A program made the position numbers and the translations under genes. A DNA stretch of 64,000 bases, from NCBI GenBank assembly GCA_034432935.1, contig DAOUBD010000054.1, positions 52 to 64,051 of the forward strand, in the 5' to 3' direction. The first letter of the stretch is position 1, and each line of letters starts with the position of its first letter. The stretch comes from Dehalococcoidia bacterium. Lineage in GTDB: Bacteria > Chloroflexota > Dehalococcoidia > SM23-28-2 > RBG-16-64-32. Of this stretch, positions 16,182-58,376 are shown piece by piece. The notes under the pieces were generated by a model. The model searched no databases. It worked only from the letters and a program-made list of their open reading frames with translations, and was not told the origin of the DNA.

Positions 16182-17492
16182 CTAGGGCCGTTGCTCCAGG
16201 GGCACGTAGGGACGGCGGCTAGGGCCGATGAAGATCTGCCGCGGCCTGGCGATCTTCTGCTCCGGGTCCTCGATCATCTCCCGCCACTGGGCCAGCCAAC
16301 CGGCCGTGCGGGGGATGGCGAAGAGGACCGGGAACATATCCACTGGGAAGCCCAAAGCTTGGTAGATGATCCCGGAGTAGAAGTCCACGTTGGGGTATAG
16401 CTTTCGCTCTATGAAGTATTCGTCCTCGAGGGCGATGCGCTCTAGCTCCAGCGCGATCTCCAAGAGGGGATTGGGGCCCGTGACCTCGAAGACCTGGTCC
16501 GCCGTTTGCTTGATGATCTTCGCCCGAGGGTCGTAGCTCTTGTAGATCCGGTGGCCGAAGCCCATCAGGCGTCCCTCGCCAGCCTTGACCCGCTTGACGA
16601 ACTCCGGCACGCGGCTCTTGTCGCCGATCTCCATCAGCATGCGGATGACGGCCTCGTTGGCGCCTCCGTGCAGGGGCCCATAGAGGGCGGCAGCGGCAGC
16701 AGCCGTGGCCGAGAAGGGGTCGGTGCGGGAGCTCCCGACGGAGCGCATAGCGTTAGTGCTACAGTTCTGCTCATGGTCTGCGTGCAGGATAAAGAGGACC
16801 TCGATGGCTCGCTCCAGCACGGGACTGGGCTTGTACTGGGGTTCGGACATCTTCCACAGCATCGAGAGGAAGTTGCCGGTATAGCTGAGGTCGTTGTCCG
16901 GATAAACGTAGGGGAGGCCCCGGTTATGCCGGTAGGTAAAGGCCGCTATAGTGGGCATCTTGGCGATGAGGCGATGGGTCTGGATCTCCCTCGAATGGGG
17001 GTCATCGACGTTCTTGGCATCGGGATAGAAGGTGGAGAGAGCGGCCACCGTGCCGACCAGCATGCCCATGGGGTGAGCGTCGTACTGGAAGCCCTCCATA
17101 AACTTCTTGATGTTCTCATGCACGTAGGTGTGCATGCGGATGTCGTGAGTCCACCTGGCCAGTTGGGCGGCGTTCGGGAGTTCGCCGTATAGCAGAAGGT
17201 AGGCCGTTTCGAGGAAGGTGCTCTTCTCGGCCAGCTCCTCGATGGGGTAGCCCCTGTACTCCAGGATGCCCTTGTCGCCGTCGATCTTGGTGATGGCGCT
17301 GCGGCAGGAGGCCGTGTTGACGAAAGCCGGATCGTAGACCATCAGGCCGAAATCGCCTTCGTGGGCGCGGATCTGGCGGAAGTCAGTAGCCCGCACGGTA
17401 CCCTCGGTGATGGGGATCTCGTAGCTCTGTCCCGTGCGGTTGTCGATGATAGTCAGGGTCTCACGGCCACCGTCTTTGTCCATAGGGCGCAT
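16182..17492 (-). CDS. gltA: citrate synthase (type II)
   Basis: Unmistakable citrate synthase motifs (LHADHEQNCST, GFGHRIYK..DPR, NVDFYSG); start at ATG 17492 (MRPMDKDGG). The track ORF extends to 17657. Confidence 0.9.
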   Translation of the reverse strand: MRPMDKDGGRETLTIIDNRTGQSYEIPITEGTVRATDFRQIRAHEGDFGLMVYDPAFVNTASCRSAITKIDGDKGILEYRGYPIEELAEKSTFLETAYLLLYGELPNAAQLARWTHDIRMHTYVHENIKKFMEGFQYDAHPMGMLVGTVAALSTFYPDAKNVDDPHSREIQTHRLIAKMPTIAAFTYRHNRGLPYVYPDNDLSYTGNFLSMLWKMSEPQYKPSPVLERAIEVLFILHADHEQNCSTNAMRSVGSSRTDPFSATAAAAAALYGPLHGGANEAVIRMLMEIGDKSRVPEFVKRVKAGEGRLMGFGHRIYKSYDPRAKIIKQTADQVFEVTGPNPLLEIALELERIALEDEYFIERKLYPNVDFYSGIIYQALGFPVDMFPVLFAIPRTAGWLAQWREMIEDPEQKIARPRQIFIGPSRRPYVPLEQRP

Positions 17493-17615
17493 CTCCTCGC
17501 ATGCTGCGGCAACTGACGATGTCTCATCCGGTATCGTACGCCTGCTGAGGCGTGCCGCCCGCCCATCGACCAGTCTCATTTTAACCTGTCGGATGGTCTT
17601 CGCGCCAAGGGTTGG

Positions 17616-17763
17616 CCAGCACCACTCCCGCCTGAAGGCGGGGGCATCAGGCCTCAACTACACTGCGGCGCCCATTGCCCGATGGCCGAGATCCAGCACC
17701 ACCCCCGCCTGAAGGCGGGGGCATCAGGCCTCAACCACACTGCGGCTCCCATTGCCCGATGCC
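17616..17763. repeat. two tandem copies (period 77 bp, 71-bp units, 67/71 identical) of a GC-rich element with internal hairpins
   Basis: Unit 1 at 17616-17686, unit 2 at 17693-17763. Each contains CCCGCC-TGAA-GGCGGG and the longer pairing GGGCATC...GATGCCC. Confidence 0.75.
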
Positions 17764-17796
17764 CCAACCTTTAGGTTGGGGTGGCCAGAATCTGGC
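17762..17796. promoter_or_regulatory. perfect 8-bp-stem hairpin (CCCCAACC-TTTA-GGTTGGGG) followed by a 13-bp palindrome GCCAGA-A-TCTGGC
   Basis: Read directly from the sequence. Lies between the HTH regulator gene's 3' end and the gltA upstream region. Confidence 0.3.
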
Positions 17797-51129: not shown

Positions 51130-52410
51130 ATGAACGTCCTAGTTGTCGGCGGCGGCGCCCGCGAGCACGCCATAGCCTGGAAGCTCCGCCAATCGCCCAG
51201 GCTCGGGGACCTCTTCGTAGCCCCTGGCAACGCCGGGACAGCGGCCATAGCCCAAAACCTGCCCGTGAAGGCGCTGGACGCAGAGGGCATTCTGGCTGCC
51301 GTCAGAGAGCACCACATCGATCTGGTGATCGTCGGCCCGGAGGCCCCGCTATCTGCCGGGCTGGTGGACCGTCTGGCTGCGGAGGGCGTAGCCGCCTTCG
51401 GGCCGAGCCAGGAGGCCGCCCGCATCGAGTCCTCGAAGGCTTTCTCCAAGCGGCTGATGATGGAGCACGGCATACCGACAGCCCAGGCCGCCACCTTCAG
51501 CAGCCGGACGGAAGCCCGCGACTACGTTCTTCGCCAGGATGGGGCCCTGGTAGTGAAGGCCGACGGCCTGGCGGCGGGCAAGGGCGTATTTGTCTGTGAG
51601 GACCCAGATGAGGCCCTGCGGGCCATCGATCTGATGATGGGCGAAGACGCGGTGTTCGGCGAGGCAGGCCGCACCGTTGTCATCGAGGAACGGCTATCGG
51701 GGCGGGAGGTCTCCGCCCACGCCTTCACCGACGGCATGTCAGTAAGACCGATGCCCTTCTCCTGCGATTACAAGCGGGCCCTGGACGGAGACCGGGGACC
51801 CAACACCGGAGGCATGGGAGCCTACAGTCCCCCCATGTGGCTGGACGAGGGCCTGGAACGGGTCATCCATGAGCGAATCACCGAGGCGGCAGTGCGGGCG
51901 ATGGCCCAGGAGGGCCGGCCTTACCGGGGCGTCCTCTACCCGGGGCTGATGGTCACAGCCGACGGGCCGAAGGTGCTGGAGTTCAACTGCCGTTTTGGTG
52001 ACCCGGAGACCCAGGTGCTCCTGCCGCGGCTCAAAGGAGACCTCCTGGAGATCTGCTGGCACGTCGTCAACGGGACGTTGGCGGACGCCTCGGTCGATTG
52101 GTCGACGGACGCTTGTGTGGGGGTGGTGATGGCTTCGGGCGGCTATCCAGACGACTATCAGACGGGCTACGAGATCGCAGGGCTGGGGAGCGTGGAGCCC
52201 GGCGTGCTGGTGTTCCATGCCGGCACAGCCATCGCCGAGGACGGCTCTGTGGTGACGGCCGGCGGGCGTGTCCTCACGGTGGTGGCCACCGGCCGCACCC
52301 TGGCAGAGGCCCGGGGAAAGGCCTATCGCAACGTCCAACGCATCCATTTCTCGCGCTGCCACTACCGCAAGGATATCGCCGCACCGGCGGCAGACGCCCG
52401 CGCCGAGTAG
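51130..52410 (+). CDS. purD: phosphoribosylamine--glycine ligase
   Basis: MNVLVVGGGAREHAIAWKL and the ATP-grasp core. Confidence 0.9.
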   Translation: MNVLVVGGGAREHAIAWKLRQSPRLGDLFVAPGNAGTAAIAQNLPVKALDAEGILAAVREHHIDLVIVGPEAPLSAGLVDRLAAEGVAAFGPSQEAARIESSKAFSKRLMMEHGIPTAQAATFSSRTEARDYVLRQDGALVVKADGLAAGKGVFVCEDPDEALRAIDLMMGEDAVFGEAGRTVVIEERLSGREVSAHAFTDGMSVRPMPFSCDYKRALDGDRGPNTGGMGAYSPPMWLDEGLERVIHERITEAAVRAMAQEGRPYRGVLYPGLMVTADGPKVLEFNCRFGDPETQVLLPRLKGDLLEICWHVVNGTLADASVDWSTDACVGVVMASGGYPDDYQTGYEIAGLGSVEPGVLVFHAGTAIAEDGSVVTAGGRVLTVVATGRTLAEARGKAYRNVQRIHFSRCHYRKDIAAPAADARAE

Positions 52411-55986: not shown

Positions 55987-56522
55987 CGCAACAGTCCAGC
56001 CCTTTCGATGAGATCGTGTCCTACGTCCGCCACCAGGCGGCCAAAGGGCCAGAACACTTGGACTCCCTGATGGAGCGCACGCAGGCCGACTGGGCCCGCT
56101 GCCTGGAGGGTATGTCAGAAGCACAGGCCACCTTTCGCGCCGGGAAGGAATGGACTGTGAAAGAGATCTTGGGCCACGCCATCGGCTCCACCCGGCTCGT
56201 CAACCGGCAGGTGGCGGAGGCCGCGCAGGGCGTCGTAACGGATTCACCCTTCGGCGAGGCCGAGGAGCTGCGGAACCAGGCGCCGAGAGAGGAGCGGCGG
56301 CCGGTGGAAGAGCTGCGGAGAGAGATGACGGCGGCGCTGGAGGAGACACGGGCGCTGGTCCGGCGGTTGGCCCAGGACAATCCCCCGGACGTGACTTTCA
56401 AGCACCCCTTCTTCGGCTCCCTGCGGCTCATGGAATGGATCGCTTTCCAGCGGGTACATAGCCTGGACCACATCCAACAGATCGAGAAGGTCAAGGCGGA
56501 CCCAGCGTATCCGAGGGGTTGA
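55983..56522 (+). CDS. DinB/YfiT-like four-helix-bundle protein
   Basis: ATG 55983 overlaps the previous stop; DinB_2-like His triad context. Confidence 0.55.
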   Translation: MTQQSSPFDEIVSYVRHQAAKGPEHLDSLMERTQADWARCLEGMSEAQATFRAGKEWTVKEILGHAIGSTRLVNRQVAEAAQGVVTDSPFGEAEELRNQAPREERRPVEELRREMTAALEETRALVRRLAQDNPPDVTFKHPFFGSLRLMEWIAFQRVHSLDHIQQIEKVKADPAYPRG

Positions 56523-56526
56523 GCCG

Positions 56527-56808
56527 ATGTTCCTGGCCCGCGTTTACGTCACGCTCAAGCCGACGGTGAACGACCCCCAGGGGCTGACCATCAAGGGGGC
56601 GTTGCACTCGCTGGGGTTCGCGGACGTCGAGTCCGTCCGCGCCGGGAAATACATGGAGATACGGCTGAAGGCGAAGGACAGCAAGGCGGCGGAGGAGCAG
56701 GTGCGGGATATGTGCCGTAGGCTTCTGGCGAACCCGGTGATCGAGGACTTCCGGTACGAGATAGAGGAGGGGAAGGCGGCGCGCTCCCGCGCCGGCCGCC
56801 GCCCCTGA
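56527..56808 (+). CDS. purS: phosphoribosylformylglycinamidine synthase subunit PurS
   Basis: VYVTLKP.VNDPQG..LANPVIEDFRYEIEE matches PurS. The last 10 codons and the stop lie inside the left 54-bp repeat copy. Confidence 0.85.
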   Translation: MFLARVYVTLKPTVNDPQGLTIKGALHSLGFADVESVRAGKYMEIRLKAKDSKAAEEQVRDMCRRLLANPVIEDFRYEIEEGKAARSRAGRRP

Positions 56809-56829
56809 CGCCGGCTCCGGGCGCCGGCG
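56776..56829. repeat. left copy of a 54-bp direct repeat (53/54 identical to 57625..57678)
   Basis: GCGGCGCGCTCCCGCGCCGGCCGCCGC(C/T)CCTGACGCCGGCTCCGGGCGCCGGCG read directly in both places; the copies lie 849 bp apart. Confidence 0.85.
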
Positions 56830-56927
56830 ATCGCCGTATAGCCGGAACGGCCCGATTCCGCTCTCGGTTGGAGCTTCGCGGGTGCCACGGCCGGCGTACC
56901 GGCACGAACCGAGCCCCCAGCGGCCGT

Positions 56928-57413
56928 CTACGATTGACCGCCAGCCCGTTCGACCGCCCTCAGACCGGCATTTGTTAGCTCCCAGACGCCTCGCTGCGAG
57001 TCCTTCCGCAAGAGGCCCTGGTTGACGAGGTCGTAGCGCGCCCACTGGGCGGTGTTGCGCCACCGAATGCCGCCGGTACTCAAGGGCTGTTTGTCGACCT
57101 CGCCAAGAATGGCGTCGACCTTCTGTCCCACCAGGGTGAGGACGTCGTCGACGCGACCCTTTCCGCCCAACTCGTAGAGCGACTCCAGGATGGGCCGATA
57201 GTAGGCGCTCTGGGGAAGCTTTTGCCCTCTGGGGAGCTTCGGCGCACCGAGGCGCCGGCCACCCACACTTCCACGTGTGGTGGGCCGCAACCCTCGGCGC
57301 CTCTCTGCGTAGTCGAGGAGCCTTCGGAGAGCATCCGCCGGAGTGTCTTCCAGCGGCTCGGCCCACCGCTTCAGGCGCTCCCACGTGGCGTCGTCAATCC
57401 TAATAACCGGCAC
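56928..57413 (-). CDS. small DNA-binding protein: N-terminal SeqA-N/RHH-like domain - R/G/P-rich linker - C-terminal Mrr-N-like winged helix
   Basis: GTG 57413, 6 nt after AAAGGAGGG. N-terminus MPVIRIDDATWERLKRW..PADALRRLLDY resembles SeqA N-terminal MKTIEVDDELYSYI..SASDILRRMLK. C-terminus YYRPILESLYELGG..IRWRNTAQWARYDLVNQGLLRKDSQRGVWELTNAG matches the Mrr N-terminal wH pattern. 161 aa. Confidence 0.55.
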   Translation of the reverse strand: MPVIRIDDATWERLKRWAEPLEDTPADALRRLLDYAERRRGLRPTTRGSVGGRRLGAPKLPRGQKLPQSAYYRPILESLYELGGKGRVDDVLTLVGQKVDAILGEVDKQPLSTGGIRWRNTAQWARYDLVNQGLLRKDSQRGVWELTNAGLRAVERAGGQS

Positions 57414-57444
57414 CGTTCCCTCCTTTCATTTGTTACCTTGTTAC

Positions 57445-57464
57445 ATTGTAGCACACGCTGTCAA
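57445..57464 (-). promoter_or_regulatory. extended -10 promoter (TGcTACAAT) with upstream TTGACA, in an AT-rich leader
   Basis: Minus-strand read: GGGGACTTGACAGCGTGTGCTACAATGTAACAAGGTAACAAATGAAAGGAGGGAACG-GTG. Confidence 0.45.
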
Positions 57465-57624
57465 GTCCCCGGATGAGACTGTCCGCCGGCCTCAGGACCG
57501 GTCGGCCGGCCCCGCGTTCGACACGCCAATAGGGGGACTCCTGAGATCGTATCGAGAGCGCAGCGGCGCCCTCAGGACACCGGTCGAAGACCTGGGCCGG
57601 AAAGCGTGGGCGGGAGGCCCACGC

Positions 57625-57678
57625 GCGGCGCGCTCCCGCGCCGGCCGCCGCTCCTGACGCCGGCTCCGGGCGCCGGCG
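57625..57678. repeat. right copy of the 54-bp direct repeat
   Basis: See the left copy; single C/T mismatch. Confidence 0.85.
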
Positions 57679-57779
57679 CGCACCGAGCCGGCGCGCACTG
57701 AGGCGGCGGCGCTATGACGGGAAGCCTCCTCGAGCGAGCAGCGCTGGCGGGTGCAGGCTCCGGCTTCTAGGCCGTCGCC

Positions 57780-58376
57780 CTAGAGAACGTCTTTGGTGCT
57801 CGGTATCTCGCCCCCCATGCGGGGGTCGATGGCGACGGCTGCGGCGAGGGCGCGGGCCAGGGCCTTGAAGACAGCCTCGGCGCGGTGGTGGTCGTTGGCG
57901 CCGGAGAGAAGGCGGGCGTGCAGGTTCAGGCGGCCCTCCTGGGCGAAGGCAGCCAGGAAGTGCTGGATGTTCTCGGTCGGAAGCTGTCCGATGTCGTCGC
58001 GGCCGAAGGCGAGGTCGAGAGCGGCGTACGGCCGGCCGCCGAGGTCCACGGCCACGAGGGCTAGCGCCTCGTCCATGGGCACAACGGCGTGGCCGAAGCG
58101 GGCGATGCCACGGCGCTCCCCCAGCGCCTGGTCCAGAGCCTTGCCCAAGACCAAACCCACATCCTCCACCAAGTGATGCGGGTCACGCTCGATGTCCCCC
58201 TGGGCCTTGATGGTTATGTCCAACAGGCTATGGCGGGCCAACGACTCCAACAAGTGGTCCAGCATCCCGATGCCGGTGGCCACATCGTAGTGGCCTCTTC
58301 CGTCCAGCACCAGGCCCACGGTCACTTCCGTCTCCCGGGTCTTGCGCGAGACCTGGGCGCTACGCTTACTTGCCAA
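57780..58376 (-). CDS. hisB: imidazoleglycerol-phosphate dehydratase
   Basis: RETEVTV..DGRG..HHLVEDVG.. IGPD motifs. Confidence 0.9.
   Translation of the reverse strand: MASKRSAQVSRKTRETEVTVGLVLDGRGHYDVATGIGMLDHLLESLARHSLLDITIKAQGDIERDPHHLVEDVGLVLGKALDQALGERRGIARFGHAVVPMDEALALVAVDLGGRPYAALDLAFGRDDIGQLPTENIQHFLAAFAQEGRLNLHARLLSGANDHHRAEAVFKALARALAAAVAIDPRMGGEIPSTKDVL

Follow-up and report, generated by a model that had tools for sequence, protein, structure and literature searches.

A 795-bp single-gene cassette between 54-bp direct repeats at the 3′ end of purS in a Dehalococcoidia bacterium

The arrival of single accessory genes between conserved neighbours without the help of a mobility gene is poorly understood, be it in the case of phage 'morons', of the 'minimal mobile elements' of Neisseria or of the origin of integron cassettes. 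Morons and minimal mobile elements are comparable to the locus described here and are not known to be bracketed by long target duplications. The duplication of tens of base pairs of a partly palindromic target upon insertion is characteristic of the CRISPR repeat duplication by Cas1-Cas2 and of casposon target duplications, while the 3′ end of the housekeeping gene fda serves as the site of the cis-mobilisable elements (CIMEs) of Streptococcus thermophilus. CIMEs are defined as elements whose genes for integration and transfer have been lost while attL and attR are still present (PMC6323972). Tycheposons are tandem, site-specific islands of 10-20 kb that are found at tRNAs and encode tyrosine or large serine recombinases (bioRxiv 10.1101/2020.12.28.424599). 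The locus in question lies within a stretch of 64,000 nucleotides (the window) from a Dehalococcoidia bacterium (assembly GCA_034432935.1, contig DAOUBD010000054.1, positions 52 to 64,051 of the forward strand), where a 795-bp cassette with a single gene separates purS from hisB and is bracketed by 54-bp direct repeats. It is a clean and recent example of such an arrival: its empty site has been identified, the two junctions can be placed exactly, and members of the same nomadic family lie between repeats at other sites.

The region is read here, with a probability of roughly 45%, as a small integrase-less insertion cassette that is flanked by att sites and resembles a CIME. The repeats that delimit it are real and were recovered by both a repeat and a DNA search; they occupy 56776-56829 and 57625-57678, are directly oriented with a start-to-start distance of 849 bp and are identical at 53 of 54 positions. 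The sole mismatch is at repeat position 28, which is a C in the left copy (56803) and a T in the right copy (57652), and owing to this difference the longest exact stretch shared by the two copies is 27 nt. The left copy begins exactly at codon 84 of purS and encodes, in the frame that opens at 56527, the residues AARSRAGRRP and the TGA stop codon, which together account for 33 nt of the 54. On the right the repeat ends at 57678, just beyond the loop of an intergenic hairpin and on the first base of its 3′ arm, so that only the right copy retains the complete hairpin, presumably the shared terminator of purS and hisB. The features of the locus are:

56527-56808, plus strand: purS, 93 aa (Pfam PF02700, E 8e-33, PurS domain at aa 4-79)
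56776-56829, plus strand: left repeat copy (attL-like), comprising purS codons 84-93, TGA and 21 nt of the left arm and loop of the intergenic hairpin (repeat and DNA search; single orthologous copy in two sister-species contigs)
56830-57624, minus strand: inserted cassette, 795 bp, absent from the sister species (alignment A3 and spacer lengths)
56928-57413, minus strand: cassette gene with a GTG start, predicted DNA-binding protein of 161 aa (Pfam Mrr_N, AlphaFold2 model, Foldseek, 256 homologues)
57625-57678, plus strand: right repeat copy (attR-like), an orphaned piece of the purS 3′ end that has T at position 28 (repeat and DNA search)
57658-57693, no strand: native purS/hisB intergenic hairpin with 16-nt arms and a 4-nt loop (inverted repeat and fold)
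57780-58376, minus strand: hisB, the last his operon gene, convergent with purS on the far side of the insertion site (Pfam IGPD, E 1e-60; same neighbour in both sister-species contigs)

No third copy of the 54-mer, whole or as either half, was found in the 64-kb window at up to three mismatches, none of 100 shuffled sequences gave a match, and 23 kb of conspecific contigs contained no copies beyond the expected ones; these counts apply to the window and the 23 kb. A repetitive extragenic palindromic (REP)-like element dispersed between genes, two copies of which flank a gene by chance, would suit the GC-rich 54-mer with its small palindromes, but is scarcely credible and was rejected given that there are only two copies, that they overlap the purS coding sequence and that relatives carry a single orthologous copy. 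Hardly any more weight is given to an assembly artefact in which a k-mer-sized overlap wrongly joined two contigs. A length of 54-55 nt is indeed close to the common k of 55 and several assemblies break at this point; however, the two copies are told apart by one base, an independent Logan assembly contains the same left junction, and diverged analogous structures with repeats of 87-92% identity exist in unrelated contigs, and this candidate too was rejected. No known RNA family was detected in 56300-58000.

Evidence for an insertion comes from two sister-species contigs, L087 (Logan SRR24079482) and L086 (GCA_034433815.1). Their gene order is that of the window, with PNPOx-DinB-purS on one strand and hisB-hisC-hisD-...-hisG converging on it, yet both lack the cassette, and purS is directly convergent on hisB. 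The purS-hisB spacer measures 971 nt in the window against 110 nt in L087 and 89 nt in L086, and subtraction of the 849 bp leaves 122 nt (971 - 849). Each of the two contigs contains one homologue of the 54-mer, which is followed directly by the homologue of the sequence beyond the right copy of the window (alignment A3). A single 54-mer homologue and no cassette in the sister species imply that the cassette is a derived insertion that was accompanied by duplication of 54 bp of native sequence; judging from this alignment, both repeat copies are native purS 3′ and intergenic sequence. By the same comparison the adjacency of purS and hisB is ancestral and so is the tail of PurS native: it comprises 14 C-terminal residues, and a long tail of the same kind is borne by the sister-species homologues P0121 and P0122 (~90% identity). 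The initial annotation of the window, which was made from the letters alone, had correctly described the two repeats and the purS codons within the left copy, and the empty sites that it proposed to look for in related genomes are those of L086 and L087. It had also noted that purS is followed by the cassette in place of purQ and purL, but since the purS-hisB adjacency is ancestral the lack of these two genes is unrelated to the cassette.

Within the species the evidence is of a different kind. All conspecific contigs (99.8-99.99% identical to the window) that end at this locus break inside or at the repeat. Contig L001 of the metagenome-assembled genome (MAG) GCA_964428025.1 ends at the last repeat base plus one C, which is the base of the right flank, whereas the cassette would give an A; the hisB contig of the same MAG, L008, starts at repeat position 29, and the two overlap by 27 nt and jointly rebuild an empty site. 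Among the Logan contigs, whose assemblies use k = 31, L003 ends at repeat position 30, L090 starts at position 44, and L091 opens at position 25 and runs from the left-type C variant into the right flank. Contig L002 runs from purS through the repeat and 116 nt into the cassette, which confirms the left junction independently. As the longest exact repeat is 27 nt, assemblers with k of at least 29 should not break in a genome that is only ever occupied, and the breaks point to additional variation, either an empty allele or a variant with a perfect 54/54 repeat. The 90% identity cluster of the cassette protein consists of a single protein from a single contig, that of the source, and the MAG thus has no called copy, though a contig of 0.85 kb could have been dropped. 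Taken together this is suggestive of, but does not prove, the coexistence of occupied and empty alleles within the species. In a separate observation, two independent Logan contigs (L002 and L003) both start at about 51555-51558 of the window, which suggests that this position upstream of the pur genes is another polymorphic or repeated point.

The gene of the cassette is the only open reading frame (ORF) between the repeat copies, as initially annotated, but it lies on the minus strand and is convergent with purS. Its product contains the winged helix Mrr_N (PF14338) at aa 70-155 (E 3.6e-12, 46.7 bits against a cut-off of 29.5). Neither Pfam, the AlphaFold2 model nor Foldseek revealed a Mrr nuclease domain or any other catalytic domain. 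In the AlphaFold2 model (29 homologues, predicted local distance difference test score 83) a short strand and a pair of helices at aa 2-39 are followed by a disordered linker and then by a confidently modelled winged helix, and the N-terminal part is read from the model as probably ribbon-helix-helix (RHH)-like. Foldseek searches against the PDB returned generic winged-helix DNA binders only, and searches of PADLOC and PHROGs with the protein gave nothing meaningful. Residues 1-45 also weakly match the N-terminus of the NCBIfam family T4SS_SepA_fam, the Brucella effector SepA family, with an E of 4e-9 that is far below the cut-off, and the module common to the two looks RHH-like. The expression signals and the edge of the cassette are:

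57414-57464, minus strand: expression signals of the cassette gene (read from the sequence with a promoter scan; motifs conserved in homologues)
57418-57426, minus strand: Shine-Dalgarno sequence AAAGGAGGG
57432-57444, minus strand: operator-like GTAAC-AAG-GTAAC
57445-57453, minus strand: extended -10 box TGcTACAAT
57459-57464, minus strand: TTGACA, mis-spaced at 8 nt from the -10 box instead of 16-18
57604-57624, minus strand: hairpin GCGTGGGC-CTCCC-GCCCACGC followed by TTTCC, with a weak T-tract, at the cassette edge towards the his operon

The Shine-Dalgarno sequence and both promoter boxes that were initially annotated are thus present, but the promoter is not near-consensus in view of the 8 nt between its boxes, and the promoter scan of the cassette called no canonical sigma-70 site. 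In the homologous loci L004, L009, L013, L017 and L093 the motif GT(T/A)AC-N3-GTAAC is kept together with TTGACA and the -10 box, there with normal spacing. From these motifs and the fold of the product we infer that the cassette gene is probably autoregulated and encodes a DNA-binding protein. The terminator scan did not pick up the hairpin at 57604-57624, which may serve to insulate the cassette. The upstream non-coding part of the cassette further contains 15-nt direct repeats with CCTCAGGAC at 57484-57498 and 57564-57578, 80 nt apart, and a related CTCCTGAG between them, which could be additional protein-binding sites. The claim of an AT-rich leader foreign to the genome did not survive: the GC content of the cassette is 0.660 against 0.665 for the window and its GC content at third codon positions 0.77 against 0.82-0.92 in the neighbouring genes, and with a GC content at the window mean the cassette is not compositionally foreign. 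Only about 50 nt around the promoter are AT-rich.

No inverted repeats are present at the cassette ends, and the Pfam tables list no recombinase or transposase for the cassette or for the ~10 kb to its left and right. Insertion sequences (IS), miniature inverted-repeat transposable elements and transposons were rejected on the grounds that there is no transposase, that terminal inverted repeats are missing and that the duplication is of 54 bp in place of 2-14 bp. The largest known target duplications of bacterial IS are ~20-30 bp, and the initial judgement that 54 bp is too long for a transposase stands. Large serine recombinases are not known to generate long identities. One such enzyme (Recombinase and Zn_ribbon_recom domains) is encoded together with an RNase_H/RVT_3 gene at L008:1-1187 in the conspecific MAG, ~12 kb beyond hisB; this is outside the window, and the source contig (64,184 bp) ends before reaching the region. 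Upstream of a citrate-synthase-like ORF on the minus strand (16182-17657), or at its 5′ end, the window also contains a tandem 72-nt direct repeat at 17616-17764, whose copies (17616-17687 and 17693-17764) share 94% identity.

According to the favoured reading, of an att-flanked cassette without an integrase, the 795 bp would represent a self-contained transcription unit composed of a promoter, an auto-operator, a Shine-Dalgarno sequence and a gene for an RHH and Mrr_N winged-helix protein. A circular form of the cassette with one copy of the 54-mer, in which the cassette end ...GGGAGGCCCACGC would be joined via the 54-mer to the cassette start ATCGCCGTATAGCC..., would have recombined conservatively with the chromosomal copy, by means of either a recombinase provided in trans or RecA in a Campbell-type event. 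Such conservative recombination would create attL- and attR-like repeats and keep purS intact, and the C/T difference between the copies fits two parental att copies. Recombination between the repeats could then remove the cassette precisely and give rise to occupied and empty alleles. The cassette protein, which probably represses its own promoter via the GT(T/A)AC-N3-GTAAC operator, would act as cargo or regulator, not as the recombinase.

A homologue search identified 256 proteins, mostly of 150-190 aa and mostly from metagenomes of Chloroflexota/Dehalococcoidia, and 13 loci from GTDB genomes as well as 64 from JGI metagenomes were collected. Clustering of all ORFs within 3 kb at 38 loci revealed no conserved neighbour such as an integrase beyond close relatives, which shows that the gene travels as a singleton. 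Carriage as cargo of a phage, plasmid or satellite was rejected, as no homologue is present in 50,697 phage records, IMG/VR gave one weak partial match and plasmids only distant matches to Mrr_N on four plasmids. Repeats recur at or next to the family gene in several loci:

L004/L022, sediment contig, protein 70% identical: 63-nt flanking repeat, 87% identical; one copy is the intrinsic terminator right at the stop codon of a convergent gene, a geometry shared with the window
L013, Dehalococcoidia: 111-nt repeat in three copies (86-92%) that set a HigB/HigA cassette apart from the family gene; the last copy borders on the stop codon of a convergent gene
L017, Kiloniellaceae (Alphaproteobacteria): ~80-nt hairpin element on both sides of the family gene, beside terminase genes
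L009: 186-nt repeat around a NYN nuclease gene adjoining the family gene
L028: 56-nt repeat around a PD-(D/E)XK nuclease gene adjoining the family gene
L011: aldo/keto reductase gene adjoining the family gene and bracketed by a 44-nt repeat
L041 and L046: repeat-delimited neighbour cassettes adjoining the family gene

The bracketing of the family gene thus recurs in at least three other lineages, and the repeats are locus-specific in that their sequence differs from one locus to the next. When one uniform test with a minimum repeat length of 35 nt was applied throughout, direct repeats flanked 3 of 39 family genes compared with 3 of 137 size-matched control ORFs from the same loci, and all three bracketed controls are cassettes that adjoin a family gene. 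Relatives bracketed by repeats at unrelated sites hint at a very small mobile element without a recombinase gene of its own. For the L004 lineage no empty site was recovered, the nearest relative being only 71% identical with a contig that ends 152 nt upstream of the neighbouring gene, and the contig of the second-closest homologue, L093, ends 302 nt past the gene. No description of recurrent repeat bracketing or array membership of such a single-gene unit was found in the literature that was searched.

Several observations on these loci stand on their own. In L013 (5002-6895) the three repeat copies are hairpin-rich, 111-125 nt long with ends AAATCCTTCT...AAGGAGGATTT, and fold as single-stranded DNA with z of -3 to -4; related motifs (TCTCCCTT..AAGGGAGA, CCCCCTT..AAGGGGG and ..GGGATTT) are found in the repeats of L009, L011 and L046. 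Repeats of the L013 type may represent an unrecognised cassette-array system in Dehalococcoidia that does not use canonical attC boxes. A conserved ORF of ~62 aa with a zinc-ribbon-like CxxC...CxxC pattern lies just downstream of the family gene in the Dehalococcoidia loci L009 (3056-3247) and L013 (6547-6735) and is absent from the cassette of the window; it has no match in NCBIfam or PADLOC and only weak ones in PHROGs to families of unknown function (best E 3e-4). In the Kiloniellaceae MAG (L017:5341-8737) the family gene with its flanking hairpin elements is immediately upstream of the genes for the small and large terminase subunits, a setting reminiscent of that of a moron within a prophage or gene transfer agent cluster.

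These other loci bear on two explanations of the window that do without att sites. The first supposes that horizontally acquired DNA entered the purS/hisB hairpin in a one-off illegitimate event, such as the repair of a break, in which 54 bp were duplicated by chance and after which the gene became a static accessory gene that, like a moron or a Neisseria minimal mobile element, is exchanged through homologous flanks only. This would fit a compositionally ameliorated, autonomous promoter-gene unit that parts two conserved genes which would otherwise be neighbours and that has no mobility gene in its vicinity, and most family members are indeed without flanking repeats. We nevertheless consider it unlikely, as long repeats around the gene are seen again in lineages independent of this one, family genes recur in repeat-delimited cassette arrays (L009, L013, L028, L041 and L046), the few repeat-bracketed controls all adjoin a family gene, and the assembly breaks at the repeat suggest ongoing polymorphism.

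The second explanation is a true long target-site duplication, whereby some unknown machinery would cut the two strands at positions offset by tens of bases (54 nt in the window; 63, ~80 and 111 nt at other loci), with a preference for terminator hairpins at gene 3′ ends, and insert the cassette, and gap repair would duplicate the target. Both copies in the window are native target sequence, and in four lineages the gene family is located at unrelated sites, between local sequences that differ from site to site. Moreover, the repeat boundary adjoins the hairpin loop, the repeats of L004, L013 and L017 are likewise hairpin- or terminator-like, and the pair that flanks the family gene in L013 is the most alike (92% against 86%), as the latest duplication would be. 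On the other hand no candidate enzyme was found, the sole protein of the cassette having no catalytic domain, and the cassettes have no conserved ends that an enzyme could recognise. The length of the repeat also varies two-fold, unlike the product of any ruler-type integrase, and the L004 copies are only 87% identical. On balance a duplication of this kind, too, is held to be improbable.

A third possibility, that the cassette is an integron-type gene cassette within an attC cluster without integron-integrases (CALIN), with the 54-mers as attC sites and the integron integrase encoded elsewhere, is considered highly improbable. One ORF between two similar sites of ~55-110 nt is what integrons would predict, L013 and L009 contain arrays of small toxin-antitoxin and NYN cassettes split by hairpin-rich repeats, and integrons do occur in Chloroflexi (PMC4889954). 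However, the 54-mer and its immediate flanks contain neither a GTT nor an AAC triplet and hence no R′/R″ boxes, the minimum free energy of the 54-mer as a single strand is no better than that of its shuffles (z -0.41 and -1.26), and the 54-mer is native purS coding and intergenic sequence that is single-copy in the sister species; insertion by IntI at a secondary site would leave no 54-bp duplication. The extended -10 box and family-conserved operator are at odds with integron cassettes, which are usually promoterless. In addition, the L013 and L009 repeats end in AAATCC...GGATTT in place of RYYYAAC...GTTRRRY, and L017 belongs to the alphaproteobacteria, a class with no integron or CALIN in 243 genomes. 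A canonical attC was consequently rejected for the window on the basis of its missing boxes, its fold and the cassette's own promoter.

The initial comparison with the attL and attR of a CIME-like element remains the best conventional fit and holds for the derived insertion, the empty sites and the lack of a recombinase nearby; the cognate integrase, the att function and the circular form are putative. The idea that the cassette is the remnant of a larger element is harder to keep, as it is not easily squared with different, locus-specific long repeats around homologous cassettes. A number of points weigh against the favoured att-flanked cassette. No integrase lies within ~10 kb, and neither att-site activity nor a circular junction was seen. 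The conspecific evidence for an empty allele consists of contig ends, which a 54/54 variant or a dropped 0.85-kb contig would produce identically. As many as 36 of the 39 testable homologue loci have no flanking repeat, and there are no conserved cassette termini, the nucleotide homology between cassettes being confined to the coding sequence and at most 40 nt upstream. The single-strand folding energy of the 54-mer is no better than that of shuffles (z -0.4 to -1.5). Finally, the different local flanks in each lineage mean that each cassette must first have acquired its own copy of the target, and target duplication explains these differing flanks more simply.

A bolder and rather doubtful extension is that RHH and Mrr_N genes constitute an unrecognised class of minimal, recombinase-less 'nomadic' cassettes with one autoregulated gene each. 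These would insert at terminator hairpins at gene 3′ ends, either by a 50-110 bp target duplication or by host recombination on hairpin DNA, and would build small integron-like arrays with toxin-antitoxin and nuclease cassettes in Chloroflexota and beyond. The locus alone is a modest find, and interest in it is raised by the recurrent bracketing and the arrays across Chloroflexota and one alphaproteobacterium. Should the long repeats reflect a dedicated mechanism, this would be a new route of gene mobilisation in uncultivated Chloroflexota, and should they be att sites that are used in trans, the cassette would be about the smallest CIME-like element described.

Compared with known systems, the cassette resembles integron cassettes and CALINs as a single-ORF unit between similar sites of 55-110 nt, with some relatives in arrays alongside toxin-antitoxin cassettes, but it differs in the lack of R′/R″ boxes and of a significant hairpin, in the native purS origin of its repeat, in having its own promoter and in the lack of intI nearby. 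As in CRISPR adaptation and casposon integration, its insertion duplicates tens of base pairs of a partly palindromic target, yet the insert is 0.8 kb and not ~30 bp, no cas1 is present and the length of the duplication is variable. Islands of the tycheposon type at gene 3′ ends have successive insertions separated by repeated partial copies of the target, reminiscent of the three copies in L013, but the cassette has only 795 bp and no recombinase. Morons and minimal mobile elements share with it the autonomous promoter-gene(-terminator) unit that is placed, without a mobility gene, between genes adjacent in relatives, and the L017 family gene directly upstream of terminase genes adds to this likeness. 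From CIMEs it is set apart by being ~10-50 times smaller, with 795 bp and one gene, by the fact that no related integrase-bearing element or cognate integrase was seen, and by the bracketing of the same cargo gene at other sites by other repeats, which deletion remnants would not predict. Like a CIME, however, the cassette is bounded by direct repeats that derive from the integration site and comprise a housekeeping gene's 3′ end, it contains one ORF and no integrase or transfer genes, and its site is unoccupied in the sister species and, suggestively, in conspecifics. The tandem arrangement with another cassette in L013, where three repeat copies alternate with a HigBA cassette and the family gene, is by analogy like accretion at an att site.

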